Shown here piece after piece: positions 2,145 through 25,011 of a stretch of 25,422 nt of DNA; the stretch's first letter is position 1, and each line of letters opens with the position of its first letter. Both the position numbers and the translations under genes were made by a program. The notes under the pieces are model-generated. The model had not been told where the DNA came from, made no database searches, and saw nothing but the letters and a program-made list of their open reading frames with translations. Origin of the DNA: a virus (Duplodnaviria > Heunggongvirae > Uroviricota > Caudoviricetes); the IMG/VR virus record IMGVR_UViG_2574180238_000002. One strand, 5' to 3'.

Positions 2145-2155
2145 TTCTTGTCTCC

Positions 2156-3788: not shown

Positions 3789-3945
3789 TTCTTCCCACTC
3801 CGCCACATCGCATTCAGATATTTGTTGTCATTAACAGAACCGAAACTCTTTCTCTTAAGCAATTCCTCTCTCGATGGCATTGGCTTTACGCGTTGGCGAA
3901 TAATCATTTCTGCCGGAAGAATGCCGGGATTGTATGCAAGTCCTC

Positions 3946-4236: not shown

Positions 4237-4246
4237 TGTTAATTCC

Positions 4247-4540: not shown

Positions 4541-4586
4541 TGGTGCTGGTATCGGATTGCTTGGCTCGTTGTTTTAAGGGGTAATC

Positions 4587-7837: not shown

Positions 7838-7851
7838 AAGATAAGATATAA

Positions 7852-8337: not shown

Positions 8338-8407
8338 ATGGTTAACTCTCCTTAGTTTTTCACAGGATATCATGAAGGCAATGCCATTTTAGCCGGAAAC
8401 TAGATTT

Positions 8408-8674
8408 CTATGTTTCCTTTTTATTATTGCTATACATGGTCTTAAGCGTTTCAAAAACCATTTTCTTAACCATATCAGATTGTTGTTCTGCCATACGCTC
8501 TGCATCGTCAATGTAAACTGATGCAGAGCTTTGTTTAGCCAATGATTCTTCAATCGCTGCAATTATCTCTGAGTTCAGCGACCTGTTATTCATCTTCGCG
8601 CGCTGTTTAATTTTCGCGTGGAGTTCATGCGGAAGTCTCAAGTGAAACTGCGCCTCGTCGTATTTGCTGTACAT
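8408..8674 (-). CDS. mnt: Mnt-like ribbon-helix-helix repressor
   Basis: 88 aa from ATG at 8674; aligns by eye with remembered P22 Mnt (..NGRS.NSE...DAER.A..QS..VKKMVF.TLK..Y). Confidence 0.7.
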   Translation of the reverse strand: MYSKYDEAQFHLRLPHELHAKIKQRAKMNNRSLNSEIIAAIEESLAKQSSASVYIDDAERMAEQQSDMVKKMVFETLKTMYSNNKKET

Positions 8675-8795
8675 CCTTGATGCCTCACCAGTTGGGTGGA
8701 ATGGCATCGTAACCTACTGGATAAATACTCAATAGTACCATTTCTGTATGCAATCACATCATGGTTGCATCATATCATTCGTCTGGAGCAATGAA

Positions 8796-10613
8796 ATGTC
8801 AGATATCACCGCAAATGTTGTGGTAAGCATGCCTTCTCAACTCTTCACTATGGCTCGTTCTTTTAAAGCTGTAGCCAATGGCAAAATTTATATCGGTAAA
8901 ATTGACACTGACCCGGTAAATCCTGAAAACCAGATTCAGGTTTATGTGGAGAACGAAGACGGCTCTCACGTTCCTGTATCGCAGCCAATCATCATTAACG
9001 CTGCCGGATATCCTGTATATAACGGACAGATTGCCAAATTCGTAACTGTGCAAGGCCATTCTATGGCTGTTTATGATGCATATGGGGCGCAGCAGTTCTA
9101 TTTTCCTAATGCGTTGAAGTGTTCCCCTGACCAGGGAATTATCAGGTTAAAAGAAGAAATTGCGAAAGATGATGGAGAGAAATATATCGGAATATGCCCT
9201 GACGTTTCTACACTCAGAACAATTGAGCCATCATTCGTCGGGCAAAATATAACTGTTCGTGGATACTACTCTGACACACCCGGGCTTGGGGGAGGAACGT
9301 TTATAGCCTTTTCCAGTTCTGAAGCTGACGATGGTGTGAATATTTTTGTTACCCCTGGCGGTAAGCGATGGAAGAGAGCAGGAAGCCACATCGATATTCC
9401 GGTAGAGAACGGTGGCATGATGACATCATGTACGGCTGAGCAAAACAGTGAAGCCTTTGAACGCCTGACTGCATGCCTTCCATATGAAGGAGGTACGCTC
9501 AGACTCAATGGATTTTACGGTATTAAGTATGGCGCTATCGTGCCTCCACGTGTCACGCTGGAGGGGTGCGGTATGGATTCCTGTGGATTAATTAAAACAG
9601 GTAACGATATTAAAACCGTTCCGGATCGCATGTGGCAGGGTGTACCACACAGCTTCTCCAAAGACTTTATTGTTGCGGTAGATATGGATAGTGACACATC
9701 AGGTGATTTAAGCGGGACACAAACAAGAAGCACCAGAATAATTGGATTGAGTATTCTAAATACTGCGCCCAATCCTTGTGATTACGGGATATATAGCGCT
9801 ATCAGTTACAATGTGCGCCTTCAGGACCTGTATATTCATAGGGTGAAAACCGGTTATCGCACTAGTGATAGTTGGTTGCAGACATGGGAAAACATTACTA
9901 TTCAGGATGTCGTTACTGGAGTTAAAATCGAAGCAGGTGGAACCACATATAATTTAAACAATATTTATGTGAAAACATGTTCAGGTGTTGCATATGATTT
10001 TAATAACATTACATATAGCAGCCTGACTTGTTTGGCTGCTGACTTCGTTAATGGTACTGGCTATAAATTTAAAGATTGTACTGGAGTGAATCTATCTGGA
10101 TGCGGAAGCGAAGAAGGCACTGGTAAAATATTTGATATAAATGGTAGTCGAATTAACGTAACTGCATTTAGAGGGGTTAATCATCATGATGGAGGAGTTG
10201 AAGCTGTATCTCTGGAATCGTGTTTCATCTCATTGGTTTCATCTCATTTTTCTAGTTACTCTGGAGTCTCATCTAGCAAATACATATATCTTAATAATGC
10301 AACTGCAAATTTTAATGGTACGGTAATTCCCGACAACACCACTGATTCTATTAGATGGGGTAGTGCGCAGAGCAGGATCAACAAGGTTGATTCAGGCGGC
10401 ACCTATAGTATAACCGGAAACTCATCATGGACTGCATTATGCAGACTTGAGTCAGGATATATAACGGTTCTATCAGTATCACCACCCACGGGAGATACAA
10501 CTAATTTCCCGTTTGGCACCAAGTGGGAATTGCTTGGTCAGGTTTATACCGGACCGTGGAAGTGGACATACGTATCAACTGGTGAATGGAAGGTATCCGC
10601 AACTACCACGTAA
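8796..10613 (+). CDS. tailspike with P22-type head-binding N-terminus and divergent receptor-binding domain
   Basis: [11 protein letters not shown]...[35 protein letters not shown]...[11 protein letters not shown] matches the remembered P22 gp9 N-terminal ~110 aa; the rest does not resemble P22 gp9. GGAG RBS. Confidence 0.85.
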
Positions 10614-10640
10614 AAAAAAGGGGCTTTCAGCCCCTTTTTA
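10612..10640. terminator. bidirectional rho-independent terminator
   Basis: aaaaaaaa-ggggct-ttc-agcccc-ttttta: perfect 6-bp GC-rich stem flanked by A-run and T-run, between convergent tailspike and acyltransferase genes. Confidence 0.65.
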
Positions 10641-10641
10641 T

Positions 10642-11685
10642 CTAATATCTGAATTTGTTTGATATCTTTTTCCCAATATCCATTGCTGGTTTTTCTATCG
10701 CAATAAATGATATCAGTCCAGCAATAAGTGATAGTGCTATGCATAAAACTTGATTTAAGTACAGGTTTATATCAGGTAATAACCTGAATGTTATCTGCTG
10801 TATTAAAAAGCCCCACAAGTAAACGCCATATGACACATCATGTTTTATTCTTACTGATTTTATTATTTTTGTTGTTGATAAATACACGAAAAATGTACAT
10901 GCGCAAAAGTAAAAAAGCATATGCTTGAGTGTTGGGTCTGACACAAAATTATATAATATTGCAAATCCTATTGGTGCATGTGGTGAAATGTATATTTTGT
11001 CCTTGTTTATAGCATACAATGCGCCAAGAGCAAAGCATGGAGCCATTAAAAACACATCTGCATTATCGTTATTTATAAAAATTAATTTGTTCCATCCCAA
11101 TACTGGAAGCGCTATTATTGATAAGCATATGATGCTAGGTATTATTCTTCCTCTGCTCTGAGTTATCATGTAGCATGCTAGGAGCACGACATAAGATGCA
11201 ACTTCATATGGTATTGTCCATAAGGAACCATTAACTGATCTTTTATATATATTTTCCTCAAAAACACCAGGAAGAAAAAATTGCATATCCAAATATGAGC
11301 TTTTAAATAGATAGCTGTACGTCAGTGTATCTTTTAAATAAGATGTCATTGAGTGCGTTGTAAGTAATGGTCCAACAATGAATGTCGCGAATAATAAAAC
11401 AAAAATGAATGCGGGGAATATTCTAAAAAATCTAGATGAAATAAAGTGTGGTATGTTGCGCGTTGTTAATAAACTATTAGTTACAAGCATTCCACTAATA
11501 AAGAAAAATATTTTTACAGCAATGGAACCAGTATATGTAAATGTGAAAACAGACTGAACCGGCTCCTGGGCTCCATCAGAATTTGCAAGATAATATGAAT
11601 GGGCAAATATTACAGAAATTGCACAAAAAATACGTATTAAGTCAAGGTTATTGTTATCCCTTTTTAGCGCATCTTTGACCAACAT
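10642..11685 (-). CDS. integral-membrane acyltransferase family 3 protein (O-antigen acetyltransferase-like)
   Basis: 347 aa from first ATG; multiple hydrophobic segments; N-terminal motif ...LDLIRIFCAISVIFAHS typical of acyltransferase-3/Oac-type enzymes; visibly AT-rich; sits where P22-like phages carry O-antigen conversion genes. Confidence 0.7.
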   Translation of the reverse strand: MLVKDALKRDNNNLDLIRIFCAISVIFAHSYYLANSDGAQEPVQSVFTFTYTGSIAVKIFFFISGMLVTNSLLTTRNIPHFISSRFFRIFPAFIFVLLFATFIVGPLLTTHSMTSYLKDTLTYSYLFKSSYLDMQFFLPGVFEENIYKRSVNGSLWTIPYEVASYVVLLACYMITQSRGRIIPSIICLSIIALPVLGWNKLIFINNDNADVFLMAPCFALGALYAINKDKIYISPHAPIGFAILYNFVSDPTLKHMLFYFCACTFFVYLSTTKIIKSVRIKHDVSYGVYLWGFLIQQITFRLLPDINLYLNQVLCIALSLIAGLISFIAIEKPAMDIGKKISNKFRY

Positions 11686-12075
11686 AAAAATCACCTAACT
11701 GTTTATTTTGAAGAGCATTGTATCATCAGATAGCCGCACTTTCACTCCCATCAGATCACCGTCAGAAATTATCATAAGCGCCAGTTCATCATGTGCAATT
11801 GCGTGCAAACAAAATATTCACTGCAGAGAGATTAAGTAGATTGATTCTACTGGGTTGGCATGAGACAAAACTGAGACACAGAAAGCTTTGCACTGGATTG
11901 CAAGGCTTTGTGCTCTCCTGTGGATGTGTGTCTACATGTTTGAAGATTGTTGTGCCGTATTTGTGACATACGCATGACAACATCATGCATCAACTTTCTG
12001 TTTGTGCCATCAACTATAGCTTAGTGAATGCGGTTAATGCTTGCTAAAACAGATAGTTATGATTGGTGCTACAGA

Positions 12076-12121
12076 TTCGTAATGCGAAGGTCGTAGGTTC
12101 GACTCCTATTATCGGCACCAT
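12076..12121 (+). other. partial tRNA-Thr 3' segment (anticodon loop to CCA): central att site of the tandem array
   Basis: ATTCGTAATGCGAAGGTCGTAGGTTCGACTCCTATTATCGGCACCA matches the 3' 46 nt of tRNA-Thr(CGU) as remembered; upstream bases do not form the tRNA 5' half, so this is not an intact gene. Confidence 0.7.
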
Positions 12122-12726
12122 CAAGAAAATCAATAACTTAGCTTAACTTCTCTAAGAAATTGTATCTTCTGTTATCACTTACAAACGCCTATACGTTGTT
12201 ATGGGCTTTGGTAGTGTAACACGTATGGGCGAGTAGTTCCCAGGCTCAACCTCGTAACAAGTTCCTTTGAAGCTGGAAGACGTGCCACCGTCTCTAAACC
12301 TTCTACCAAAACTCTTAGCAAGATGTTCCACACCTGGCGCGGTGTCCAATGATGCTACACGTCGTGAGACGTTGCAGAGGATAAACAGGCTAAATGATGG
12401 GAAGAGTTTTAAGTGCAATAGTGGATCAAAGCCCACCTCTTCAAAACCTAACTTGATCGGGAAAGAATCAAGCTCTAGCACGGTTTCGTCCACCGGAGTA
12501 CAACGGGTGCCTGATAAGAGAAGAACTGCTAAGACTTCATAGCTTTTGTGAAAAAGCCCTTTTTAGTGGATACGCCTACGGCGCTTATTTTTTGGTATAA
12601 CCATCAAAGGCGCTTTATGGCTCCTATTGTCTTGAAAATGTATCTTTACTTGTATTGTGTTTTATGCGTAGTCTCCCTGTGTAGTATGTAACTTGTTAAT
12701 TTTCATATGAATACAGAGGCAACACG

Positions 12727-12879
12727 ATGAAAAACATTGCAGCTATAAAACGTAATAACCGCAAGATTCACGCTCGTAAGTTCCTGTCTACGCCAGAAGG
12801 AAAAGCCTGGCTAGAGCGTAAACAGAGAGAGAACGAAGAAAGAAAACTCCTTAGTGAGTTGAAATGGCTTAAGGATTGA
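12727..12879 (+). CDS. small basic protein (50 aa), uncertain
   Basis: MKNIAAIKRNNRKIHARKFLSTPEGKAWLERKQRENEERKLLSELKWLKD; not in the ORF track (below its length cutoff); followed by a long hairpin. Confidence 0.3.
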   Translation: MKNIAAIKRNNRKIHARKFLSTPEGKAWLERKQRENEERKLLSELKWLKD

Positions 12880-13429
12880 ATCACCAGTAGGCGCATAACA
12901 CATCCAGCGATCAAAGATGTGTTTATGCGCCTGATAGTGAAATTATTAAAGTTTTTTAGTTAATGTAGCCATTGCATGAACGATGATCGCTAGTGAATCG
13001 ATTTTATCTCGAGGGGTAAAATAGATGAGGTATATGATGGTAACAATTACAGCTAAAGTAATTGTGGTTCTGCAGGTTTTTAAAATGGATAAGATAAAGC
13101 GCATAGATACCCCCTATTGATTTAACAACAATAAGGTATCATTTATTTTTTATTGCATGCAATGTGCAAATTTTCACATATAATAGCTTACTATTCACTT
13201 TGCATGGTGTCAACAAGATGATGTGTTGTTTTGTTTGATTTGTTCAAGATAATATTTCATTTTCTCATCTATATAACTTGTGTTTTAGATAATTTCACTA
13301 ATTGTAAAAGTTACGTATTGCTTAATAGCTGCCTTTTTATCTGAAATCGGCGCAAACGTGATCAATGTTTAACGCGAAGATCAGCGGCGTCAGGTCCACG
13401 CAGCGACAATTCTCAAATATCAGGAGGCA

Positions 13430-13981
13430 TTACGCTTCCTGCTCTTTCTTGATACGTTGCACCGTCTGTGTGCTGACACTGAAATCTTTTGCTACGCTCC
13501 GAATTGATCCACCATTCGCGAGAGCGGCAACAATTCCCGCTCGATCAATTGCTTTTCCATTACCACGTTTTGCTATACGTCCAGCGGCCTTAGCTGCGGC
13601 GATCCCCTCACGTTGCCGCTCAAGCATCATTTCACGTTCCATTTGTGCCACTGCTGCAAGCACTGTGAGCATCATATTCCCTGCGGGAGAGTTCTTCCCT
13701 GTCTTAAAGTCTTCTTTATGGAAATGCACAGACACGCCGCGCTCTGTTAATTGCTCAACCGTTGCCAGAAGGTCGGCTGTATTACGGCAAAGGCGATCAA
13801 TACTGTGAACATGCACAACATCACCTTCCCGCACATAGTTCATCATTGCCTCAAACTGTGGGCGCTGAGTGTTCTTGCCTGACGCTTTATCTTCAAAGAC
13901 TTTATCAAGAGTTACTCCAGCTAATTGACGGTCTGTGTTTTGTTGCACAGTCGATACCCTAATGTATCCAATATTAGCCAT
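13430..13981 (-). CDS. serine recombinase (resolvase/invertase family)
   Basis: MANIGYIRVSTVQQ... with the catalytic Ser context, DRL.R motif and C-terminal HTH (GGSIRSVAKDFSVSTQTVQRIKK); ~183 aa, typical of small resolvases/invertases; RBS 9 nt upstream of ATG at 13981. Confidence 0.8.
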   Translation of the reverse strand: MANIGYIRVSTVQQNTDRQLAGVTLDKVFEDKASGKNTQRPQFEAMMNYVREGDVVHVHSIDRLCRNTADLLATVEQLTERGVSVHFHKEDFKTGKNSPAGNMMLTVLAAVAQMEREMMLERQREGIAAAKAAGRIAKRGNGKAIDRAGIVAALANGGSIRSVAKDFSVSTQTVQRIKKEQEA

Positions 13982-14507
13982 TTTCATTTTCCTTCTGTGT
14001 TGATTTGTGTGTAGTGATTATTGATCGTGTTGATTAGGTGTGTAAAGGACTTTTTTCACTACGAAATTCGAAGGTTTTTAGTGTGGTGATTTAGCCTGCT
14101 TTATCACTACACGTCTTGCATGAGAATCATGTAGTTACATTTTGGTAAAATTAGCAAGCTATTAAATAGTGTGTTTATTTTGAAAAAATAATTTTTTGTT
14201 GCATTAAAGGAAACTTGTTCGACAAATAATAGATTGATTTTTAATCAACAATTTCTGATAGTGCTCTGTAAGCCGTATTACACAAGGCTTTGCGAAAGTG
14301 ATGTAAAAGTGAAGAAAGCTAACATTGCACTTTTTAAGCTACTTTTCATTGGATTTTTACGTAGGAATTACACAGGGATTAATCATCAATTACATTGAAT
14401 TTAAGCCTGTTTTAGATGTTTAATTTTGGTAGCAAGAAACACTTTTAGAAGATCATTGCACAGATGTTATGTGATAAATGGATGTAACGGTAGGTCACTG
14501 TGAACTA

Positions 14508-14644
14508 CCCCCACAGAATTCTGTTATCCTTAACTTTTAAAGAAATATGCACCCTAACAGAAAACTGTTACCCCAACCCTAACAGAATTATGTTAGATAC
14601 CCCCACAGAAAACTGTTAGCCACCCCTACAGAATTTTGTTACCT
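14508..14644. repeat. array of five ~23-bp iterons, each a TAACAG-N4-CTGTTA palindrome preceded by a C-run
   Basis: Cores at 14513-14526, 14557-14570, 14582-14595, 14605-14618, 14628-14641; four of the five start 23 bp apart. Confidence 0.65.
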
Positions 14645-14756
14645 ATTAGATCAACTATCAAACTACAATTAAATTATCTTTTATAAATTCTTTTATCTTT
14701 AAAGAATAATTAAGTGATACCCGTTAGGGAGTCTTCGACTATCCCTTAATCTATTG

Positions 14757-15033
14757 GCATTCGCCAGAACCTTGCACAAGTTAGAGTGTTAGTCGTTAGA
14801 CTGCTTGTCATAACACATAGTTTTTGTTTGTTGATGTTAGTTAGTAGATCTATGTTCGCTAATGCCGCTCACAACGAATATGTAATCTACTATGTGCAAA
14901 TAGCCTACGGCTTGCGTAAGGCTAAATAGTCTATGCGCTGTGCGCTTCAATAGTTCCATTGATGAGGCTTACGCCAATCTAACGATCATCAATCATCTAA
15001 AATAAATTTCTTGTGCAATGTTCTGGCGAATGC
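14757..15033. repeat. 24-bp inverted-repeat pair flanking a 229-bp segment
   Basis: gcattcgccagaaccttgcacaag (14757-14780) versus reverse complement of cttgtgcaatgttctggcgaatgc (15010-15033): 23/24 identity. Confidence 0.55.
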
Positions 15034-15339
15034 AATTAGAGTAGCGTTACCCCTTTGGGGATGCTAACGCATAACTATAGATCAACCATCAAACAGACAA
15101 AAAAGAAAAATATGGTTTAAAGATGTTAGGTAGTAGATGAGATTCTACCGCTTAAATCAAGCCGTAGGCGAGCTAAACAGCCTCTACATAAGGGAATGTA
15201 TTGTATTTATCAAAACCTCGTCAGAGGGCGTTTTAGAGCGTTTTAGAGAATAAGGAAGAATAGGAGCACTCTTAAGAGCACGAATTGCTAAGAAAAATTA
15301 TAACACACTGAAAATGATCAATATTTTTATGGCTAGGGG

Positions 15340-15368
15340 TTGACAAAAGCTTTTAGTCGTGGTAAAGT
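15340..15368 (+). promoter_or_regulatory. candidate sigma70 promoter for the 15492-17800 operon
   Basis: TTGACA (15340-15345), 17-bp spacer, TAAAGT (15363-15368). Confidence 0.4.
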
Positions 15369-15491
15369 AATATTAGGGACAGAAAACATTCTTATCCTCT
15401 AAGTAATTAAACCAATGCACCGCACTTTGAAGCCCAACAAGGCTTGCAAGGTGTTTTTTCTTTTAACCAAATAGAATAAGGAGGCTAATTA

Positions 15492-15668
15492 ATGAAATAT
15501 TTTACTCCACAGGATGTAGTTGAAGCCTGGAAACGTGGTGAGATTAATCGTTTTAAAGTAAGGATGAACAGGAACACAGCGCGACGCTGTGGTTATCCAG
15601 AGCGTGAAAAATGCTTTGACGATGCACTAAAAATTATTGATGAACTGCGTAAGGCAGAGAAAGAATAA
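15492..15668 (+). CDS. small protein (58 aa), unknown function
   Basis: Strong SD AAGGAGG upstream of ATG; MKYFTPQDVVEAWKRGEINRFKV...; first gene of a co-directional operon. Confidence 0.5.
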   Translation: MKYFTPQDVVEAWKRGEINRFKVRMNRNTARRCGYPEREKCFDDALKIIDELRKAEKE

Positions 15669-15689
15669 TAACAGGAGAAGGAGAAAACT

Positions 15690-15860
15690 ATGAGCGAAAC
15701 TACAGAAAAGAAAAGACAACCACGCACTTGCTTTCATATTCCTGATGAAGTATTTCAGGTGTTGTTTAAAGAAGCCAGAAGTAAACGTATCACTGTTACA
15801 GATTACATTCTTGATATGTTGAAAAGAGAGGCTGAAACACTCTCAAACAAAAGCAAGTGA
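15690..15860 (+). CDS. small ribbon-helix-helix-like DNA-binding protein (56 aa)
   Basis: SD AGGAGAAGGAG; sequence RTCFHIPDEVFQVLFKEARSKRITVTDYILDMLKRE fits a beta-strand then two helices as in CopG/Arc/ParG-type RHH proteins (by-eye secondary-structure pattern). Confidence 0.5.
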   Translation: MSETTEKKRQPRTCFHIPDEVFQVLFKEARSKRITVTDYILDMLKREAETLSNKSK

Positions 15861-15913
15861 TTTTTATCACCATAGTAGCGCCGTAGAGCGTGATTACATC
15901 AAGGAGATTTTTA

Positions 15914-16483
15914 ATGATTAATGAAGAACAATTTGTAAAAGTTCCTATGTGGATTCTAAAAATAAGCCAAGTAAACGGACATAAATTTACAGATAGTGCT
16001 AAAAACCTTTACTGCTATCTGAGAGGGTTTGATCGTGCATTTCCCTCTTACGCTAAGATAGGCGATGTTTTTGGCATAACACCAAGAGCAGCAGAAGAAA
16101 GGGTTAAGAAATTGCTCGAAATGGGATTAATTATAAAAGATGCACGACCAGGAAGCTCTAACCTTTATCGAGTGCTTGATATTCCAAAAGGAGAATCATC
16201 ACTACCTGATCCTTCTGAGAAAGAAGACGAATCTAATGAAATATTGAATGTTTCCGAAATCATCGTTGAAGAAGAAACACAAGAGCCAGAGTTCCCTGAG
16301 CGGCCCGAAATTTTTACTTGGCTTCTTTCCCTTGATAAGAAGAAACCACCGCACGAAGAAACAGAAGATTTTGTAAAACGAGCATTAGATTCAAAGAATA
16401 TCTATCTTTGTGAAAATGATTTTGACTCTTTGATAATTGATCTCAAAAGTGAGAGCACAATATATGATTCACTACCCTTCTAA
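15914..16483 (+). CDS. predicted winged-helix DNA-binding protein with acidic C-terminal tail
   Basis: ATG at 15914 with AAGGAG RBS; N-terminal ~90 aa has a wHTH-like pattern (..AKIGDVFGITPRAAEERVKKLLEMGLI..); C-terminal half highly acidic. Confidence 0.55.
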   Translation: MINEEQFVKVPMWILKISQVNGHKFTDSAKNLYCYLRGFDRAFPSYAKIGDVFGITPRAAEERVKKLLEMGLIIKDARPGSSNLYRVLDIPKGESSLPDPSEKEDESNEILNVSEIIVEEETQEPEFPERPEIFTWLLSLDKKKPPHEETEDFVKRALDSKNIYLCENDFDSLIIDLKSESTIYDSLPF

Positions 16484-16492
16484 GGAGAATAA

Positions 16493-16750
16493 ATGACTTA
16501 TAACATCACTATAGGAAACAAAACTATTGAAATAACTGAAAGCGGATACAACATTTTAAAAGCTATTTTGGACATAGAGTTTTCACCACCGACAGTGGTT
16601 AGCTTTTGTAGTTTAGGCGGCTACAGCGCACAACACGTAAATCATTTTACATCGTTCGGTGTGCTGGATTATGAAGGGATTAACAGCACTACATTTCGTC
16701 TTTTGAAATTAAACAAAGATTTTGAATTGTTTCTCACAAACAATCAATAA
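16493..16750 (+). CDS. hypothetical protein (85 aa)
   Basis: AAGGAG RBS; same-strand operon context. Confidence 0.5.
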   Translation: MTYNITIGNKTIEITESGYNILKAILDIEFSPPTVVSFCSLGGYSAQHVNHFTSFGVLDYEGINSTTFRLLKLNKDFELFLTNNQ

Positions 16751-16847
16751 CAACAGATCGGGCAATACATATGGCAAATGCATTTATGGCGATATTCATC
16801 GTAACAATGGCGTCCAGTTTTTATAATCCACATAAAAAGAGGGAAAA

Positions 16848-17231
16848 ATGGGAAGAAAGAAAAAGAACAACTTAAAACGTATTGAAAAAAACAGTAATTT
16901 CAATTCAAAAAGACAACGTCCACCGACACACACCAATAACGAAATTCCAGGGGAAGAGATAATCTTTATTCTTGAAACAGAATCCCCTGAATTAAGTGAT
17001 GAAGAATTAGAAATAATCCAATCAATGCCAGGCGTTTACTTTCGCCCAAGAACAAGAAAACAAACTATCATTTCTGATGGCACTCTGAAACGTTGGCAGC
17101 TTTTAGGGTTTAGCTCCTATCATCATTTTTTGGGATTTAACGCTTTCAATAATTGTGTAGGTGGTGCATCGGAAGTCGATCTGATGGCTCATTTAGAAGA
17201 TACATTAGCTTCTAACAAACGTTCTAACTAA
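16848..17231 (+). CDS. hypothetical protein with basic N-terminus and acidic middle (127 aa)
   Basis: RBS AGAGGG; N-terminal Lys/Arg-rich stretch followed by an acidic segment. Confidence 0.5.
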   Translation: MGRKKKNNLKRIEKNSNFNSKRQRPPTHTNNEIPGEEIIFILETESPELSDEELEIIQSMPGVYFRPRTRKQTIISDGTLKRWQLLGFSSYHHFLGFNAFNNCVGGASEVDLMAHLEDTLASNKRSN

Positions 17232-17246
17232 TAAAATGATGGGTGT

Positions 17247-17492
17247 ATGTATAAGCGCCCAATGAAAATATTCAAAAAAGGAAAAATAATGATTGGCTAT
17301 ATTCAAGAAACACAATTATTTCAGATGATCCTGTCTGATGCAAAAAACTATGCAGAGTTAATTCGGCTGGCAAAAGAAACAGAAGACTACGAAGCATTAG
17401 AGCGTTACCGTGATGAAGTGCTGACGCTCAAGACACCTTTTAACATCGTATTGAATATGATTAATGATGCATTACAAGGAGAATACGCATAA
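17247..17492 (+). CDS. hypothetical protein (81 aa; alternative start at 17289)
   Basis: ORF with better RBS (AAGGA) before the internal Met at 17289; stop overlaps the next start (ATAATG). Confidence 0.45.
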   Translation: MYKRPMKIFKKGKIMIGYIQETQLFQMILSDAKNYAELIRLAKETEDYEALERYRDEVLTLKTPFNIVLNMINDALQGEYA

Positions 17493-17800
17493 TGGAAGAA
17501 GATATTAGCAATGCAATGGAACAACTTTTAGAACTGACTATCTCACTACAAACAAGAATAAATCAAGCCTATTCAGATTTATGCGATTACACGCTCTCTC
17601 AATGCGTTATTAGCTTAATGAAGGTGAATGTAAGCCTTGACGATTTTATCTCTCTTGGGAGCGATTTAGAGCTATCAGAGGACGATGCAAAACAGTGTAA
17701 TCAAATCATCACAGACATCGCCACCACGTTAAAGGTTGCAAGTGAAGAGATTCAGCAATTAGTAGATGATTTAGCAAAAAGTGCTATTTTCTCTAAATGA
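17492..17800 (+). CDS. strongly acidic small protein (102 aa)
   Basis: AAGGAG RBS; about 19 Asp/Glu versus about 6 Lys/Arg by count. Confidence 0.5.
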   Translation: MEEDISNAMEQLLELTISLQTRINQAYSDLCDYTLSQCVISLMKVNVSLDDFISLGSDLELSEDDAKQCNQIITDIATTLKVASEEIQQLVDDLAKSAIFSK

Positions 17801-18642
17801 TAATGAAAATTATTTGCATTTATAATGATTTTGTTATATAATAATTTTAGGGGTAGATAAAAAGATTTTAGTTGGTGTTAATCCTTCTACTGTCATAAAT
17901 CCCTGCATATGGAAGGTGATAGCCTCAAAGGTTGAGTGGCATTAACCTCTAACAAATATTACCTTCCATCTCTCAAGAAGTTTTAGAATAATCATAACTC
18001 CCTCTTTGATTGTTGATTGTTTCTACGTTGTGTTGATGAATGTTGTTAGGCATTGTGCTTAATTTTGATAAAAGCGGGTAGGTGTTATCTCCTTGCCCTT
18101 CCCGCTCTTATTTTTCATCTATGCTTATCCTAAAGCTCCTTATTTTGTCAGAAAACATTAAAGAGCCTTACACTGATAGTTATATTTTATAACTATTTAC
18201 TAACATCATTAAACTATTATTTAATGACAGAAGTTAGTAACAGAATAATCTATTAAGTTGTTGTCAAAAACAATCATCTGCATAGCGTTAGCCGCAAGCA
18301 GAGAGAGTTTAGCTAAGAATGGTGCAATAAACTTTGGAAATATTGATAGCAAAACGGGTTTTATAGAATGCGGATCTATAAGCTTTGGTTGTAAAAACGA
18401 TTTTCTGAAACGGTAGATTACTGTTGGTGTAGTTAATCATTATTAAAAATTTAATCTGTGAGTAGATTGGAATAGTGATTCCTTAAAATCTGACTGGTGC
18501 ATCCACACCATGAAAGATAGCGGTTGGCCACCGCGCCCCGAATAGATATTCCTGATTGATTCCGCATGTTTTCCTAAGAGCATGTTTTCAGGAGTATCTA
18601 TTCACCCTTTAAGCATATCATCAAGTATATTTAAAAAGTGTA

Positions 18643-18671
18643 TTTGCTGATATGTTTAATCCTCTTATAGT
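18643..18671 (+). promoter_or_regulatory. candidate sigma70 promoter for the 18785-23366 operon
   Basis: TTTGCT (18643-18648), 17-bp spacer, TATAGT (18666-18671); weak -35, good -10. Confidence 0.3.
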
Positions 18672-18784
18672 TTAACTTATCAATTATGTAATTGCCCGCA
18701 CGTTAAAGCCCCTTTGCTGGTCAGAATTAACCTCTTACGGCATTGGGGCTTTTTATTTGTCTGGCACTAACAGGAACATTATTT

Positions 18785-18982
18785 ATGAAACAAGAAATGA
18801 TTATCAGCAAAGACGGGGAAACGATGATTGTTAGTGATGAAAACCTCATTAAGGTTGCCGCACTGTTGGGAGTTACTCCCGAAAGTCTTCGTTCTACCAC
18901 TGCTCAATTATTTAAATCGGCTGATGCGGTTAGTCTTGCTGATGCCCTTAAATCTAAAATTAAACAACTGAAAGGAAAATAA
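18785..18982 (+). CDS. hypothetical protein (65 aa)
   Basis: AGGA RBS before ATG at 18785; first gene of the second operon. Confidence 0.45.
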   Translation: MKQEMIISKDGETMIVSDENLIKVAALLGVTPESLRSTTAQLFKSADAVSLADALKSKIKQLKGK

Positions 18983-18986
18983 TCTT

Positions 18987-19370
18987 ATGGCTAACCCATA
19001 TGGAAAATTAAAAGCAGTGAATGCGGATAACTCCCGTTCACGCTGTAAGGTAGTAGCTTACGCTGCTGATCCAGTGCTGCAAGATCGCCTCGTCAAACTG
19101 GCTTCACCTCTCACTGACGATCTTATTGTCGGGGCTTTGCTGAAAGCCGATGGCACCAAAGCAACAACCGCATCTGATATTGCTCACGTAGTAGTTGAAC
19201 CGGCTTATGAAGGACAGGAAAGCGTAGTGGTTGCACATCCTACTTTCGTTATTCTGGCTGAAGATGGGATTGAATTTAACAGCATGGAAAAGGCAAGTGT
19301 TATTGCAAAACTGCAATCTCTCGGCTTTGTAATTGCTGGTTATGAAGAACTTGCGATCCCTACGACTTAA
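18987..19370 (+). CDS. hypothetical protein (127 aa)
   Basis: AAGGA RBS; tightly spaced with neighbours (4-14 nt intergenic). Confidence 0.55.
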   Translation: MANPYGKLKAVNADNSRSRCKVVAYAADPVLQDRLVKLASPLTDDLIVGALLKADGTKATTASDIAHVVVEPAYEGQESVVVAHPTFVILAEDGIEFNSMEKASVIAKLQSLGFVIAGYEELAIPTT

Positions 19371-19384
19371 CAAGGAAAATAATA

Positions 19385-20416
19385 ATGAATGATTTATCAA
19401 CATATTTTGGCGTTAATACTGCGGTAGTAACTCCATTTGCTTATGAGAATGCACTTAATACCCTGATTACTAATCTCGATCTGTTCGATGTGCAATATCA
19501 TACAGAAAACAGCATTCTTCTTACCGACCTGATTGATCAGTTTGTGCAGGTAGCTGGGGAAACCTCGCCTTACGCTCAAAGCGACTGGAACGCCTCTAAA
19601 CGTCAGGAATGGTCAAACAAACTTTTCCAGATGAAACACGTCGGCAGTATTAACGCTGTTACTTCTCGTGACCTGGAACAATACAGCCGCCAATATCCAA
19701 ACCGTTCTGATGCTATGCTGGTAGCGGTTAATGATTTCTCTGAGGCTCATTACCGTTCACACGCAAACCGTGTTGAAGTGGATCTGATTACCGCGCTGCT
19801 GGGCCTGAAAGTTGAATCTGAATATGCCGGACAAGGTGATCTCGACTTCCTCGACGGTCAGGCTAAAACCACGGTACCCGCTATCGACTTTGCATCGACT
19901 ACTGTTAACCCGTTCCTTGCTATTCGTAAAGCGGTGCGCTTACAGAGTGAAAAGCTGGGGTCTGGTCTTGCTGCAAAGCGAACTGGTGTAATTATCTTTG
20001 CTGCTGGCACTGCTGCTGATGGTTTGTCATCTAACCCGCTGATCAGTGACATGGTGAAATATGCAGGCGATGCGAGTGCTACGGCCCTGTTTACCCGTAT
20101 GGTTGATTCTAACCCAGCCTATGACTCTTTCCAGATTGGTGGGATCACTGTTATTGATGTGTCAATGTTTCCTGAGATTGTTGCTCACATCGGAGAGAAC
20201 GGTTTCGCAATTGTTCCGGTAATGGATAAAGCGGCACAGTGTTACCAGCTTCATAGCGGCGTTGGTGTGCGTCATGCTGAGTTAGGTCAAGATGCCGTGT
20301 TGCATCACCAATATCTAATCAAGGATGAATTCCAATTCCCATCTGTGGTTACTGAGACATCTTATCTGCCAGTAAACAACATTCCGCAAGCTATCATCTT
20401 CGGATCTGCTGCGTAA
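19385..20416 (+). CDS. hypothetical protein (343 aa), function unknown
   Basis: AAGGA RBS; no signal peptide or recognisable catalytic motif by eye. Confidence 0.55.
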   Translation: MNDLSTYFGVNTAVVTPFAYENALNTLITNLDLFDVQYHTENSILLTDLIDQFVQVAGETSPYAQSDWNASKRQEWSNKLFQMKHVGSINAVTSRDLEQYSRQYPNRSDAMLVAVNDFSEAHYRSHANRVEVDLITALLGLKVESEYAGQGDLDFLDGQAKTTVPAIDFASTTVNPFLAIRKAVRLQSEKLGSGLAAKRTGVIIFAAGTAADGLSSNPLISDMVKYAGDASATALFTRMVDSNPAYDSFQIGGITVIDVSMFPEIVAHIGENGFAIVPVMDKAAQCYQLHSGVGVRHAELGQDAVLHHQYLIKDEFQFPSVVTETSYLPVNNIPQAIIFGSAA

Positions 20417-20567
20417 TAAAGCGTTAATAGACGATTCCCCATCGGGGCAATAAGGGTAAAGGGATTAACTAACCTGTAGGCGCAAATACAGTAACGAATC
20501 TCTTTGCCCTTTTTGTTTTTCTACTGTCTACAAACCCAAATAAAAATATATATGTGAGAGAAAACCA

Positions 20568-20765
20568 ATGAATACAGAAAACCCACAATCCTTTATTCTT
20601 AAAGCTGTAAAAGAACTGGCAGCTATTAGCGAGGAATCAGTTATAAACACATCGGCGCTTTGCCGCCTTTTAGAAATTGATGCAAATAATGTGCGCCAGC
20701 GTGTCTTTCAGACTGGGTGCAGCACTTTCGAAGCAATTCAATACTATTGCTCTAAAAAACAATAA
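20568..20765 (+). CDS. hypothetical small protein (65 aa)
   Basis: ORF in operon context; weak RBS. Confidence 0.4.
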   Translation: MNTENPQSFILKAVKELAAISEESVINTSALCRLLEIDANNVRQRVFQTGCSTFEAIQYYCSKKQ

Positions 20766-20799
20766 TAAACAACAATCATAATACAGGGAAACAATTAGC

Positions 20800-22641
20800 A
20801 TGTTAGAACTTAACGTCAGCCGCTTATCAAACGTTGTCACCTTCCAGGTTGATCGACCATCATTAGAGAAAGCAAAAGCAGAAGTAGAAAAACTTCGTAA
20901 ACAAATGGCGGCGGTGAAAGATATAGAATTGCGTGTTAAGACACATAAACAATCAACTTCTAAAGCAAAAAAAGACGTAGACGATATTGCTAAAAAGCAA
21001 GCACAGGCAGATAAAGCCAATGCTAAAGCACAATTAGCCGCTCAACGTGTAGTTGCAAGAGAACAAAAAGCCCTGGCAGCACGCAAAGAGAAGGCAGACT
21101 TAAAACTGTTAGACGTTGGATCAAGCATTAGTGCATTGCACCGCCTTTCTGTAGCGGAACAATATAAAGCTATTGCACAGGCTAGAGAAATTGCCCTCCA
21201 ATATGAAAGAGGAGCTATTAGTCTGGCACGTATGAATAGCCAAATGAAACGCCTACAACAGCAACAACGTAAGATTAATGGCAATCGTAACGCTCACGCT
21301 AAAGCCTATGCACCTGTTAAGGGTAGCGGGAGTATTGGCGGCGGTGCTGCGGCTGTTATGCTGGGTGGCTTAGGCGCTGGCGCTACGTATATGGCTATGA
21401 GCAAAGCCTCTGAATTTGTTACTAACAGCTTTGCGAATGCTGAAACGCTGGGTGAATTGTATAGCCGTGCGAAGCTGGGCGGTGTAGACGTTAACCAGAT
21501 GAACAATATTGAGCAATGGGCCTACAAAAACGGCGTTGATTCAATGATGGGGGATCAAGGTAAACGTAAGTATCTCGATCAGATGAAAGATGTGCGTGAG
21601 CGTGCAACCAAAAGCTATGATGAGGCTGAATATGTAGTCGATAAAAAAACAGGCAAAGGTGAATGGAAGGGCGGCGATAGCGGCATCAATACTTTAATGA
21701 ATGAAGGATTCTTAACTAAAAAGGATCTAAAAGACTTTGCTGATAATCCGGCTGGTCTGGTTAGTAAAGCAGTTCAGGGAATGGTGAAGAAAGGCTATTC
21801 AGATGCACAAATCGGTAGTCGTCTGGAAGATCTGGCTGATGATTTGATGCTCACCTCTAAATACTGGACACGCTCCGCTAAAGAAGTGGAACAATCAGCA
21901 CGAGAACAACTAGAATCAGGGCGCTGGGTAACACAGGCACAACAGGAAAGCGTTATTAAATTCCGTGAACTGAATAATGCACTTAGTGGGCTTTCTGACT
22001 CACAAGGGATCGCCTTTGTTGATGGCTTTATGAAATCTCTTGATCCGAAAGTGATTGAAGAGTTTAAAAAGAGCATGGTTGCAATGCTGCCAATGTTTAC
22101 CAAATTAGGCGAGGCTATCGGCGGATTGGTTAACGCCGTAATGAAAACAATCAACTGGCTGATGAAAAACGACGAGAAGACGGAAGCTATTCAGAAGAAT
22201 TTAGGGGATGCACCGCCACTATCTAACGAAGGAATGAAGCAGAATCTTTCTAATCTCACTCCTGATCAATATAAAGGCGCTGGCACCGGAACAACTAAGC
22301 CAGATAACAGCAATTCCCTGGTTAACACTATTAAAAGCTGGTTTATGCCAGAAGAAACGGTAGGTGGGGCGCAGGCTGTAAATCAATACAGTCTCGAAGG
22401 ACAAAACATTGCAAATCTGAAACAGAGTGCAGCACAACAAGCTTTCAAGGCTCCTTCTTACACCTTTGCACCTGTTATTAACTTCAATCCAGAATTACAA
22501 GTAAATGCAGAAGTGCCGCTAACTATCGAATCAGACACCGGACGATTGAGCGAATTTATCGACTTCAAATCAAAGGCATCCTCCGCTGAGTTTAGCAAGC
22601 TATTAACGCTGGGTGTTATGTCAGGCGGGTCAACCTATTAA
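20800..22641 (+). CDS. large coiled-coil protein with Gly-rich hydrophobic segment (613 aa)
   Basis: AGGGA RBS; N-terminal ~170 aa Lys/Ala/Gln-rich heptad-like sequence; GSGSIGGGAAAVMLGGLGAGATYMAM resembles a glycine-zipper membrane segment. Confidence 0.6.
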   Translation: MLELNVSRLSNVVTFQVDRPSLEKAKAEVEKLRKQMAAVKDIELRVKTHKQSTSKAKKDVDDIAKKQAQADKANAKAQLAAQRVVAREQKALAARKEKADLKLLDVGSSISALHRLSVAEQYKAIAQAREIALQYERGAISLARMNSQMKRLQQQQRKINGNRNAHAKAYAPVKGSGSIGGGAAAVMLGGLGAGATYMAMSKASEFVTNSFANAETLGELYSRAKLGGVDVNQMNNIEQWAYKNGVDSMMGDQGKRKYLDQMKDVRERATKSYDEAEYVVDKKTGKGEWKGGDSGINTLMNEGFLTKKDLKDFADNPAGLVSKAVQGMVKKGYSDAQIGSRLEDLADDLMLTSKYWTRSAKEVEQSAREQLESGRWVTQAQQESVIKFRELNNALSGLSDSQGIAFVDGFMKSLDPKVIEEFKKSMVAMLPMFTKLGEAIGGLVNAVMKTINWLMKNDEKTEAIQKNLGDAPPLSNEGMKQNLSNLTPDQYKGAGTGTTKPDNSNSLVNTIKSWFMPEETVGGAQAVNQYSLEGQNIANLKQSAAQQAFKAPSYTFAPVINFNPELQVNAEVPLTIESDTGRLSEFIDFKSKASSAEFSKLLTLGVMSGGSTY

Positions 22642-22688
22642 TCATCACTGTGGGGCTGTTTAGCCCCCTTAAATAAGGATTACAAATT

Positions 22689-23366
22689 ATGGCAATGGGT
22701 CCGTTAACCATTGGTCGCCCGACTGAGGCGAAAATCAACAGCACAAGCAACGATAGCAACGGTAGAACAACCAAAGGGGGTAACGGCTTTGCGATCATTA
22801 CCTCTAATCTCGGCAGTGGTGCAAATGCTGCTTACAATGACTACCAGGCATTATCATTTGATAGCGTGGAATCGACGAAAGTTAGCAGAAATGCGGACGT
22901 TACAAGCTATGCCGTCGAATCAGGATCAGAAGTTAGTGATCATGTTCAAATACGGAATAACAAGTTCACATTACAAGGGCGTATCTCTGAAACCGTATTG
23001 AAGCTCAATCCTGATATGATTAAGAATGCTGGAATTAACGGCAATCGACGTATGCTTATGCTTGAATACCTAAATCAGTTGATGGACAGTCGCCAACCTT
23101 TCCTACTTGTCACTGAGTTAAAAAATTATGACAACGTTGTGTTAGTTGGCATGTCTTACGAAGAAGAAGCAAGCGAAAGCCTATTGTTTACTCTTGATTT
23201 TGAGCAAATCCGTCTTGTCTCTAAAGCAACTACAAGCGCAATTGCGGTAAAAACAGCACCAAATAAATCTGTAGGAGGCCAGGTTAAAATGCAGGTAAAT
23301 ACAACAGAACAGAAAAATCAAAAAAGCCCAGGGCAAGACGTTGTAACGCCAGTATTTAAACAATAG
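22689..23366 (+). CDS. hypothetical protein (225 aa)
   Basis: AAGGA RBS; preceded by a ggggct-gttt-agcccc hairpin. Confidence 0.55.
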   Translation: MAMGPLTIGRPTEAKINSTSNDSNGRTTKGGNGFAIITSNLGSGANAAYNDYQALSFDSVESTKVSRNADVTSYAVESGSEVSDHVQIRNNKFTLQGRISETVLKLNPDMIKNAGINGNRRMLMLEYLNQLMDSRQPFLLVTELKNYDNVVLVGMSYEEEASESLLFTLDFEQIRLVSKATTSAIAVKTAPNKSVGGQVKMQVNTTEQKNQKSPGQDVVTPVFKQ

Positions 23367-23446
23367 CCTTAAACGCCTATGAAACGCTCTGTAACGAGAT
23401 AATCATAAAAGAGGCATCAGCCTATATTGAAGCCTCTTTATTACGT

Positions 23447-24724
23447 CTATAGCGTTGTTTTACGCCTTAAATTTGATTTTTTATTGATTGATAAGCCTTT
23501 CTCTATTTCAGGGTAGCGTAAAAGCTCAATATATTTTTTAAGCTCTATTGGAGAAGCTGCATTTTTGCTATATGTGCGGAATGTTTCTGTATTGCCGCGT
23601 GTATGGCCCAGGAGAAGGGCGATCCTGTCTTCTGGAATTTGATTTCGATCAAGAAGCTGTGCTACTCCGTGTCTCAGAGAATGAAACACTTTCCTTTCTG
23701 TTCCCTTTTCCCCTAAAGCCTTTCGTTTAGCTCTTGTAAATCGTTGTGTATGCCACGTAGAGCGTTTACCGTCAGCACGTTCTGTAATGCTGGCGTGATA
23801 GAACAAAAAGCCATTGTGAGGCTTTTCACGCAGCGACAACACCAACGGAGTGATAAGGTTATGCACAGGCACAACACGTGCCGCAGCTTTCGTCTTTCCC
23901 TGTGTGATTTCAAAACACAGCACACCTTCGATCTCTTTCACATCGTCTATTGTGAGACTTGCTATCTCATTGATCCGCATACCTGTATATAAACCGATAA
24001 GACACAAAGCCGTCATTTCTTTGTTTTCTGCTGAATTACCGGAAAATACTTGCAACACCTGCAATAGCTCTTTGTTAGAAAATGCCTCGTAGCTCTCTCT
24101 ACTTTGTGCCACATCAAGCCTATGCCCTCGCCAGGGGGAGAGCGCCCTTTCTGGCGCATCGTGGTAACGTGATGAAGCTAATTCCCATAGCTGGGCCATT
24201 GGACTGATATAATTTGCAATTGATTGTTGTGAAAGAGTTTTTTGCATGTGTTCAATCCAGCCTGTAACAGTGGTGCGGCTTACATCTTGCAATGCAATAT
24301 CAGGCTTTTTACGGTAGGAGAGAAACATCTCTACCGCTTTTCTTGCCTTAGCTAAAGTGGCTGGCTTCTTCTTCGTGCTGTTAATTGTCAGGTAGATTTC
24401 AAGAATTTTAAGCAATGACGGACACGAAGACGCTGTATCTTGCACTCTGGTAGCTGTTTTGGCGTATTTAGCCTTACTGCGTAACAGTTCCAGCGTGTTT
24501 TCTATTGTGCTGTTTACAGGGGCAACACTCTCCCGTAAGCAATGGTATTCATCTGCAATCTGATCACGCTTTCTACGTGCAACACGAAGATTACTTGTGT
24601 GTAGACTTCTGACAAACGTCCTTTTTCCTTCAAAAAAGGGCTGCATATACACAGGCAGCGTGATCCTTAAATAGTAGTTACCGTAAGAATCACAGATTAA
24701 GTATTGGTTAGGCTTGTATCTCAT
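23447..24724 (-). CDS. tyrosine integrase of the second element (P4-type size, about 425 aa)
   Basis: C-terminal catalytic-domain pattern (..HSLRHG..LLGHT..TFRTYSK.. consistent with the R/H-x-x-R/Y region); GGAG RBS before ATG at 24724 (track ORF extends to a TTG at 24811); adjacent to the tRNA-derived repeat. Context resembles thrW-associated integrases such as IntF of E. coli K-12. Confidence 0.8.
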   Translation of the reverse strand: MRYKPNQYLICDSYGNYYLRITLPVYMQPFFEGKRTFVRSLHTSNLRVARRKRDQIADEYHCLRESVAPVNSTIENTLELLRSKAKYAKTATRVQDTASSCPSLLKILEIYLTINSTKKKPATLAKARKAVEMFLSYRKKPDIALQDVSRTTVTGWIEHMQKTLSQQSIANYISPMAQLWELASSRYHDAPERALSPWRGHRLDVAQSRESYEAFSNKELLQVLQVFSGNSAENKEMTALCLIGLYTGMRINEIASLTIDDVKEIEGVLCFEITQGKTKAAARVVPVHNLITPLVLSLREKPHNGFLFYHASITERADGKRSTWHTQRFTRAKRKALGEKGTERKVFHSLRHGVAQLLDRNQIPEDRIALLLGHTRGNTETFRTYSKNAASPIELKKYIELLRYPEIEKGLSINKKSNLRRKTTL

Positions 24725-24823
24725 AAAATCTCCGGCTAAAGTGTCGGAGCGTTTGTAATGTGAAAATTGATTGTGACGCATAGAAAATGATGATTTTTCT
24801 ATAAGATTCAATCAATTAGTAAT

Positions 24824-24885
24824 GGTCGTAGGTGATGGCATTAACACGAGATTAATCGAGTGTTTTACTCCTATTATCGGCACCA
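24824..24885 (+). other. degenerate pseudo-tRNA / right att of the second element
   Basis: 19-nt exact match to the tRNA-Thr 3' end (ACTCCTATTATCGGCACCA, 24867-24885), plus an upstream 10-nt tRNA-like piece (GGTCGTAGGT, 24824-24833) separated by non-tRNA sequence. Confidence 0.6.
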
Positions 24886-25011
24886 TTAAAATCAAAGAGT
24901 TACCCCATATTTAAATACACCACGTTTCCTCCTGTGCCGTATTTGTGCCATTGTAACCTTGGCAATTCATCAAAATACTGTTCTGACATCAGGCAGTGCA
25001 GGTGCAGACAT

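Follow-up and report, generated by a model that had tools for sequence, protein, structure and literature searches.

The closest described relatives of the locus treated here are the satellites predicted by Barth, Dunham and Seed in 2023: 224 putative elements of ~13 kb from E. coli that match odn-like genes (PMC10055350 / PMC10448857, Fig. 8), the latter being RepA_N-T5orf172 genes of the coliphages Inny, Muut and Mt1B1_P17 (PMC10055350). As described, on bioinformatic grounds only, these satellites occur in E. coli and close relatives, are att-flanked with a tyrosine integrase beside a tRNA gene and a modular RepA, and encode a decoration protein (Dec), a major capsid protein (MCP), a tape measure protein (TMP) and a baseplate component, without the signature genes of the capsid-forming phage-inducible chromosomal islands (cfPICIs) (PMC10055350). 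The window analysed here, the whole stretch of 25,422 nucleotides from the IMG/VR virus record IMGVR_UViG_2574180238_000002, contains a 12,765-bp integrative element which, judged by its gene content, is a Mt1B1_P17-matched member of the Barth family. Nothing contradicts this membership: the 12,765 bp lie between 20-bp thrW repeats and include a tyrosine integrase gene; Dec, MCP, TMP and baseplate component are encoded, and terminase, protease, alpA, adaptors and Pri-Rep are not; and in the N-terminal part of its RepA 104 of 105 aa are identical to Mt1B1_P17 gp053. These points were reached here independently of the published prediction. We propose that the element is probably a satellite whose helpers are virulent phAPEC8/Phi92-like myoviruses from the Stephanstirmvirinae, for the most part Phapecoctavirus.

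The preliminary description of the window had presented this block as an undescribed system of unrecognised gene content. Neither part of that statement is supported: a replication initiator, an MCP, a TMP and a tail-tube initiator are recognised by searches with profiles, structures and PDB sequences, and the family had already been predicted (Barth et al. 2023, PMC10055350), so that homology to a described satellite family, on which the claim of novelty had been made to depend, is largely what was found (PMC10055350). Our literature search found no experimental follow-up to the Barth family, and searches for work linking satellites to Phapecoctavirus, phAPEC8 or Stephanstirmvirinae returned nothing relevant. 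In a word search of the main text of Barth et al., 'packaging signal', 'pac site', 'terminal repeat', 'iteron', 'noncoding RNA' and 'non-coding RNA' are all absent. What appears to be undescribed is a candidate packaging site resembling a helper genome terminus, an iteron origin and a covarying RNA of ~450 nt.

Several better-studied satellites share parts of this organization. All PLEs (elements resembling phage-inducible chromosomal islands) of Vibrio encode TAC, TMP and BhuB (baseplate-hub) homologues that are 19-41% identical to those of ICP1 and are incorporated in satellite virions, and Odn cleaves the PLE origin (PMC11838301). The element and its predicted helpers resemble the PLE/ICP1 pair in the virulent myovirus helper, the iteron origin with a modular RepA, the satellite homologues of TMP and baseplate core, and the chimeric origin-directed nuclease. 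The described architecture of PLEs nevertheless sets the two apart: PLEs have a large serine integrase, an external scaffold (TcaP) acting on the helper coat protein and no MCP, whereas the element has a tyrosine integrase, its own MCP and a 185-aa serine recombinase. With cfPICIs it shares a satellite-encoded HK97-fold capsid protein. However, cfPICIs also encode a protease, portal, head-tail adaptors, terminase small subunit, AlpA and Pri-Rep, and no TMP, whereas of the head module the element has only the MCP and a decoration-like protein, the other cfPICI genes not being detected. Of the genes of Gram-negative PICIs of the EcCI type, AlpA, Pri-Rep and TerS/Rpp/Ppi were likewise not detected in it. 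The closest mechanistic analogue for the capsid gene, g12, is Ccm of SaPIbov5, which is homologous to the major capsid protein of the helper and serves to redirect the size of the head (PMC8569155); SaPIbov5, however, is a Gram-positive, cos-type Staphylococcus aureus pathogenicity island with a siphovirus helper, and has neither TMP nor tube initiator. The P4/P2 pair offers a further likeness in its ~12-kb, tRNA-integrated satellite with a packaging site copied from the helper and a genome sized for a small capsid, but P4 has Sid, Psu, Delta and the alpha primase and uses the helper coat protein, and no such homologues occur in the element (Pfam, PHROG and NCBIfam). The leuX site used by relatives of the element is also that of P4. 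The EPIPs of Mycolicibacterium encode an MCP and a TMP and have altered head and tail dimensions (bioRxiv 10.64898/2025.12.02.691453), but differ in their serine integrase, small terminase, adaptors and scaffold and in having an actinobacterial temperate helper. That the block is not a complete phage, a P4-like element, a PICI or a conjugative element, as had been stated, is thus borne out, and cfPICIs are likewise excluded, the defining genes being undetected.

The sole virion-gene homologues of the element are four, decoration-like, major capsid, tape measure and tube initiator, encoded with two further small proteins in its right-hand operon:

18785..19370, plus strand: g10 (65 aa) and g11 (127 aa), placed by synteny with phage gp146-gp145
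19385..20416, plus strand: g12, major capsid protein of the lambda gpE/HK97 fold type, 343 aa (family PF03864, AlphaFold2 model)
20568..20765, plus strand: g13, conserved, 65 aa, upstream of the TMP gene at the position of phage gp136 (open reading frame (ORF), synteny)
20800..22641, plus strand: g14, tape measure protein homologue, 613 aa (phrog_16051, 1e-33; Phi92 gp134, 6e-22)
22689..23366, plus strand: g15, tail-tube initiator/Dit-like baseplate core, 225 aa (PF21821, 1.2e-27; Phi92 gp135, 7e-54)

While g12 itself is without a Pfam match, PF03864 (phage major capsid protein E) is found in 9 of 14 family members, and the g12 homologues that bear it, from Citrobacter, Klebsiella, Cronobacter, Pluralibacter and Enterobacter, are 42-56% identical. 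The AlphaFold model of g12 matches HK97-fold capsid proteins only, the best being those of PhiTE, ICP1 and Bas63 (E 1e-9 to 1e-6); with Mt1B1_P17 gp145 (333 aa) the sequence identity is 24%. Matches of g11 are faint (phrog_2680, E 0.068; Phi92 gp123, E 0.98), its orthologues in other genera being 42-46% identical, and we term it decoration-like from its position and size. The g14 protein is 28-30% identical to the TMPs of Stephanstirmvirinae, and 53% over its first 34 aa; the RefSeq label 'flotillin family protein' for this gene (20800-22641) was rejected in favour of a TMP by the phrog_16051 and Phi92 gp134 matches. The g15 protein is 53% identical to Phapecoctavirus gp134 and also matches the PhiTE tube initiator (3.5e-10). 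In Phi92 the two proteins matched by g14 and g15, gp134 and gp135, are neighbours.

In tblastn searches the nearest phage relatives of the TMP and the tube initiator belong almost exclusively to the ~150-kb virulent Stephanstirmvirinae, the groups matched being Phapecoctavirus, Justusliebigvirus and the phiWec phages. In Mt1B1_P17 the order is decoration gp146, gp145, nine genes, gp136 (72 aa), TMP gp135 and tube initiator gp134; the element keeps this order with the in-between genes missing. None of the known phages searched has close homologues. Terminase, portal, protease, sheath, tube, primase and relaxase were all absent from its proteins in profile searches of Pfam, PHROG and NCBIfam, and PADLOC returned only sub-threshold noise for defence systems, in accord with the original observation that terminase, portal, primase, relaxase and known defence enzymes are lacking.

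A second connection to the same phages is in non-coding DNA near the left end:

13344..13426, plus strand: helper-terminus-like segment, 83 nt, non-coding, sharing ~81% identity with the left-hand boundary of the direct terminal repeat in Phapecoctavirus

The counterpart of this segment, also non-coding, is present in 65 phage records, each of them phAPEC8-like, and a 36-nt core of the match has one mismatch. Genomes of Stephanstirmvirinae are reported to have direct terminal repeats at their ends (PMC12695924), and exact ones are present in the records of Mt1B1_P17 (328 bp), WPEC1 (328 bp) and KKP 3954 (309 bp). Each of these three independent records starts at the reported genome end, and that start is contained in the block common to phage and element, at the equivalent of ~13371 in the window. 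The segment is accordingly a candidate for a terminase recognition or cleavage (packaging) site copied from the helper, which would account for an element without terminase genes. In the Klebsiella relative, distant BLAST matches between the non-coding DNA and phages are dominated by tRNA-Gly and uninformative as to terminus mimicry.

The replication module provides a third link, this time to a single phage:

14507..14720, unstranded: candidate replication origin, comprising five iterons of 23 nt (14507-14644) and an A+T-rich stretch after them (repeat and composition analysis)
15890..16483, plus strand: g5, winged-helix replication initiator, RepA/O-like (phrog_270, 1.2e-8; RefSeq start 15914)
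L003:3042-4028: Mt1B1_P17 gp053, with a second winged helix-turn-helix and an endonuclease region after a 105-aa Rep-like domain

The iteron array noted earlier is confirmed: the motif CCNNACAGAANNNTGTTA occurs five times at 14509-14641 against 0.01 expected by chance. The RefSeq label of g5 (15914-16483), 'LexA family transcriptional regulator', was set aside, the PHROG matches being to replication initiators. Over 355 nt g5 is 98.6% identical to the DNA of phage Mt1B1_P17, and its residues 9-113, the DNA-binding domain, are 99% identical to the N-terminus of gp053 (104/105, BLASTP). The C-terminal part of gp053 matches the endonuclease family phrog_681, with weak hits to MUG113 (E 4e-4) and T5orf172 (E 0.037), an architecture that is the same as that of ICP1 Odn (PMC10055350). 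Thus, gp053 appears to be an Odn-like anti-satellite nuclease, as Barth et al. (2023) proposed, and the alignment indicates that one helper phage has a nuclease gene which captured the DNA-binding domain of the initiator. The iteron motif is not found in the 6.3-kb gp053 region of Mt1B1_P17, and for promoter or regulatory motifs shared with the helper, neither the comparison of 12-mers nor a scan for late promoters of the T4 type yielded matches above chance level. Relatives of the element have non-orthologous Rep proteins, each with different iterons at the equivalent position. Beside the iteron region, the Klebsiella and Enterobacter relatives have a 186-aa tyrosine recombinase where E. coli has the serine enzyme, and this non-orthologous swap suggests a common role such as multimer resolution. 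In one relative (L004) inverted repeats of 40 nt, 73% complementary, flank the entire origin region.

L004:3835-4395, L007:4213-4773 and L008:4102-4662: 186-aa tyrosine recombinases

The boundaries and recombination genes of the element are as follows:

12075..12121, plus strand: 3' fragment of thrW (tRNA-Thr) and attL (compared with the full thrW in loci L059 and L072)
24867..24886, plus strand: attR, right copy of the 20-bp att core (repeat search)
23447..24811, minus strand: tyrosine integrase, g16 (PF00589, 1.5e-17; PF20172; PF13102; phrog_1)
13430..13987, minus strand: small serine recombinase of resolvase/invertase type, 185 aa (PF00239, 8.9e-39; phrog_125, 4.5e-62)

The exact direct repeat ACTCCTATTATCGGCACCAT lies at 12102-12121 and 24867-24886, a spacing of 12,765, and such a 20-nt repeat has a chance expectation of ~3e-4 in 25 kb by our own arithmetic. 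The exact copy of the tRNA 3' end at both ends had been recognized before, with a length of 19 bp that we correct to 20 bp. The thrW fragment comprises 46 nt (12075-12120), its 3' end being the left att core copy (12102-12121), and serves both as attL of the element and as attR of a P22-like remnant on its left. Neither ARAGORN nor Rfam finds a complete tRNA in the window, and hence the 'tRNA-Thr' is a fragment left between two tandem insertions. The integrase gene, at the attR end, codes for a DUF6538 N-terminal region; its longest ORF has 454 aa and the RefSeq copy 425 aa. Both recombinases had been named correctly. In NZ_CM142789 a copy with 98.7% identity, in which every ORF is annotated as intact in RefSeq, stands directly behind an intact thrW with the vat island on the other side. 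Different left and right neighbours for the same unit are as expected for site-specific integration, and this second context supports the early view that a discrete element is integrated at the 3' end of thrW, with a prophage remnant in front of it. By megablast, copies with at least 80% coverage and 97-99% identity are present in 144 of 5,426 complete E. coli genomes (~3%), and partial matches in 762 (~14%), with O104:H4 outbreak strains among the carriers.

The same architecture recurs in six other genera, Klebsiella, Enterobacter, Citrobacter, Kosakonia, Kluyvera and Raoultella, with 30-50% aa identity of the shared proteins; in Yersinia there is only a distant relative of the capsid protein (29% identity). 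The left part of family members consists of the tRNA att site, variable cargo, a small recombinase, a long non-coding region with iterons and a g3-g4-Rep-g7 operon, and the right part of a g10-Dec-MCP-g13-TMP operon followed by the integrase. Integration is at thrW, a tRNA-Gly or a tRNA-Leu, and lengths are 12.1-13.0 kb, or up to 14.0 kb with extra cargo. For every conserved gene non-synonymous change (pN) is far below synonymous change (pS), with dN/dS of 0.11-0.29 where synonymous sites are unsaturated. Conservation of architecture and size, together with pN << pS, argues against a decaying prophage and favours a size-constrained functional element.

Within E. coli some variants carry a second Dec/MCP pair, equal to g11/g12 in sizes and position and without BLAST similarity to them:

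L151:9339-10758, L047:8388-9797 and L035:3506-4916: second Dec/MCP pair

The MCP of this second clade passes the PF03864 threshold and aligns over its full length with major head proteins of the phAPEC8 type and with the capsid protein gp124 of Phi92. The pair occurs with the same or different TMP/tube-initiator alleles, and TMP alleles go down to 29% identity within E. coli; on these comparisons the variants are best read as modular shuffling of virion genes. The cargo at the left end, between the RNA/g1 region and the small recombinase, also varies, and includes a DUF4145 protein, an HNH endonuclease and a secreted 183-aa protein. This region resembles the accessory/defence hotspots of other satellites.

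L007:2401-3036, L008:2250-3868 and L156:2897-3448: left-end cargo loci

If the element is a satellite, its cycle might run as follows. Upon infection by the helper, the element would excise via Int and replicate from the iteron origin through g5, with replication proteins of helper or host. Its capsid and decoration proteins would assemble with the portal, protease and scaffold of the helper into small heads for ~12-13 kb, and its tape measure and tube initiator would enter helper baseplates and tails to give chimeric tails, as reported for the Vibrio PLEs. The helper terminase is predicted to package the element via the terminus-like site at ~13371. Interference with the helper would likely be a by-product, which some helpers appear to counter with an Odn-like origin-directed nuclease (Mt1B1_P17 gp053).

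Several observations weigh against this proposal. Induction, excision, packaging and transfer are predictions; the attP junction GAGTGTTTTACTCCTATTATCGGCACCATCAAGAAAATCAA has no match in IMG/VR or in 200 fetched loci, and all metagenomic copies examined are integrated, the ~12.7-kb contigs being integrated copies with flanks. Identity to helper virion proteins is low (MCP 24-25%, TMP 28-30%), and hence the true helper could be an unsampled relative. Confidence in the g12 model is moderate (pLDDT 58.5). No scaffold, excisionase or small terminase was identified in the element, in addition to the missing protease and portal. The terminus-like segment is gained and lost jointly with the serine recombinase among E. 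coli variants, and was detected neither in the relatives from other genera nor in E. coli variants without the serine-recombinase module; since it is missing from some members, it is not the universal packaging signal of the family. The joint gain and loss also speaks for another reading of 13344-13426, as a target of the adjacent serine recombinase, which would recombine with the terminal-repeat region of the helper so as to co-integrate with it or damage it, or else as a shared regulatory site. We regard this as unlikely, though not negligible: in three phage records the homologous block extends across the precise point reported as the genome end, where terminase must act, and the enzyme is of the small resolvase/invertase type, not a large serine integrase. 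In any case this reading bears on a single part and can be reconciled with the satellite model.

Two other explanations address the element as a whole. It might be a defence island that is never transferred in virions, its capsid, TMP and tube-initiator homologues being dominant-negative decoys against helper assembly, and its integrase and Rep serving only maintenance and amplification. The divergence of the virion-gene homologues from those of the helper would fit this, as would the failure of the attP search of IMG/VR and the fetched loci to show an excised or packaged form, and the left-end cargo of relatives varies (DUF4145, HNH proteins) as in defence hotspots; moreover, assembly-interference defences exist (PMC11364771, PMC10884400). 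Nonetheless, the tight 12-14-kb sizes, the helper-terminus copy and the cross-genus spread at different tRNA sites fit packaging and transfer better, PADLOC finds no match, and known satellites both interfere and transfer, so that interference is compatible with satellite behaviour; we therefore consider a pure defence island improbable. The other explanation, that the element is a decayed remnant of a temperate Phi92/phAPEC8-like relative whose structural genes were left by chance and have no present function, draws on its position next to another prophage remnant and on the presence of only 4 of the roughly 25 virion genes needed (25 being our own estimate). Against this, six other genera retain the reduced gene set in the same order, the aa identity being 30-50%, and Yersinia has the distant capsid relative; pN is far below pS for each conserved gene, the ORFs are all intact in RefSeq copies and known phages have no close homologues; such a remnant is thus a very remote prospect.

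The satellite proposed here also carries a module that does not belong to the virion genes, namely a candidate structured RNA directly downstream of attL:

12181..12637, plus strand (tRNA sense): candidate structured non-coding RNA of ~450 nt, from covariation
12207-12212/12305-12310, 12230-12233/12251-12254, 12278-12282/12289-12293, 12360-12363/12368-12371 and 12395-12401/12600-12606: helices of the RNA
12452-12472: hairpin of the RNA
L110, RNA motif at 5205 (RNA orientation), integrase near 14160-14976: ~9.5-kb island with the tRNA-RNA-integrase chassis

There is no credible ORF in 12181-12637, and the region retains 75-80% DNA identity across genera whose element proteins are ~45% identical. 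A motif scan recovered ~100 homologues, and RNAalifold on 31 non-redundant ones gives seven helices, two of them long-range. Among these 31, 98% of the cells are paired, against 32-46% in slid controls; pairs with double changes number 17 against 2-5, and the covariation score is 0.43 against at most 0.08; none of 500 shuffles attained the value observed. One further hairpin shows at least eight distinct complementary stems, variable hairpin insertions are also seen, and G-U pairs favour the plus strand. Rfam has no match for the region at the gathering threshold and only noise at E <= 10. Single-sequence folding energies are not significant (z -1.07 for the plus and -0.23 for the minus strand), and hence the case for the RNA rests on covariation.

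The RNA module is found in 564 of 5,426 E. coli genomes (~10%). Its place is always immediately after the target tRNA and in the same orientation, at thrW or tRNA-Leu. It accompanies integrases with 55% or more identity to g16, and is not recognisable in the Klebsiella tRNA-Gly type. The L110 island has, in place of capsid and tail genes, a restriction-modification-like cargo: a DNA cytosine methyltransferase-like gene, a 216-aa partner, a serine recombinase and regulators. As the RNA tracks the integrase and sits on an island free of virion genes, it belongs to the integration chassis and not to the virion module. Since it always follows directly on the target tRNA and shares its sense, it could report or control the integrated state, and expression by read-through from the tRNA promoter is plausible. 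We advance only tentatively, at a little under an even chance, the combined view that this is a new class of large structured RNA and that the satellite is packaged through a copied helper terminal-repeat boundary.

The remaining features of the element are:

12727..12879, plus strand: g1, highly basic, 50 aa (tblastn; third-position changes in the alignment)
14747-14780 / 15010-15043, unstranded: 34-nt inverted-repeat pair, 88% complementary, with 229 nt between (repeat search)
15340..15368, plus strand: best sigma-70-like promoter match, TTGACA-17-TAAAGT, before the first operon (consensus match only)
15492..15860, plus strand: g3 (58 aa) and g4 (56 aa, weakly Arc/ribbon-helix-helix-like), both conserved, presumed regulators (dN/dS ~0.2)
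16493..17800, plus strand: g6 (85 aa), g7 (127 aa), g8 (81 aa) and g9 (102 aa) (ORFs)
17801..18784, unstranded: non-coding spacer of ~1 kb between the operons, with no similarity to phages

The most conserved protein of the family is g1, with 73-79% aa identity across genera and pN of 0.18 against pS of 0.95; its gene lies just past the structured RNA, and is not present in the tRNA-Leu-integrating variants that retain the RNA. The g7 protein is conserved across genera, and its AlphaFold2 model (pLDDT 56, pTM 0.31) is uninformative. Both tightly packed same-strand operons of the preliminary description (15492-17800 and 18785-23366) are supported by the ORFs and by RefSeq annotation of the 98.7%-identical copy, and its inverted-repeat pair was likewise recovered. 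A reading of the 229-bp segment between these repeats as an invertible promoter switch of the Hin/Gin type, suggested by its place beside a gene of 'DNA invertase' type, was rejected: with a synthetic flipped query, the native orientation was found in 247 genomes and the flipped one in 0. To the left of the element, positions 1-12074 of the window are a P22/Sf6-like prophage remnant with its central genes missing, which retains an injection protein (PF16928), a tailspike head-binding domain (PF09008), an O-antigen acyltransferase, Ead/Ea22 and a truncated integrase. The 46 nt of thrW kept in its attR agree with the length of the P22 att core.

Phages of the phAPEC8/Phi92 type are widely isolated and in use as therapeutic coliphages. 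If the element acts like a PLE, it would be a widespread factor that determines resistance to these phages in a strain-specific way, and would also allow genes to pass between enterobacteria. With E. coli as host, available phages and an Odn-like counter-nuclease, it would offer a tractable system for the formation of small heads from a satellite's own coat protein combined with a swap of the tail core. The terminus-like site provides a concrete candidate for a packaging signal and, if true, would be the first one defined for Stephanstirmvirinae and their satellites. The covarying RNA, for its part, would represent a rare case of a large structured RNA that has remained unannotated in E. coli genomes.

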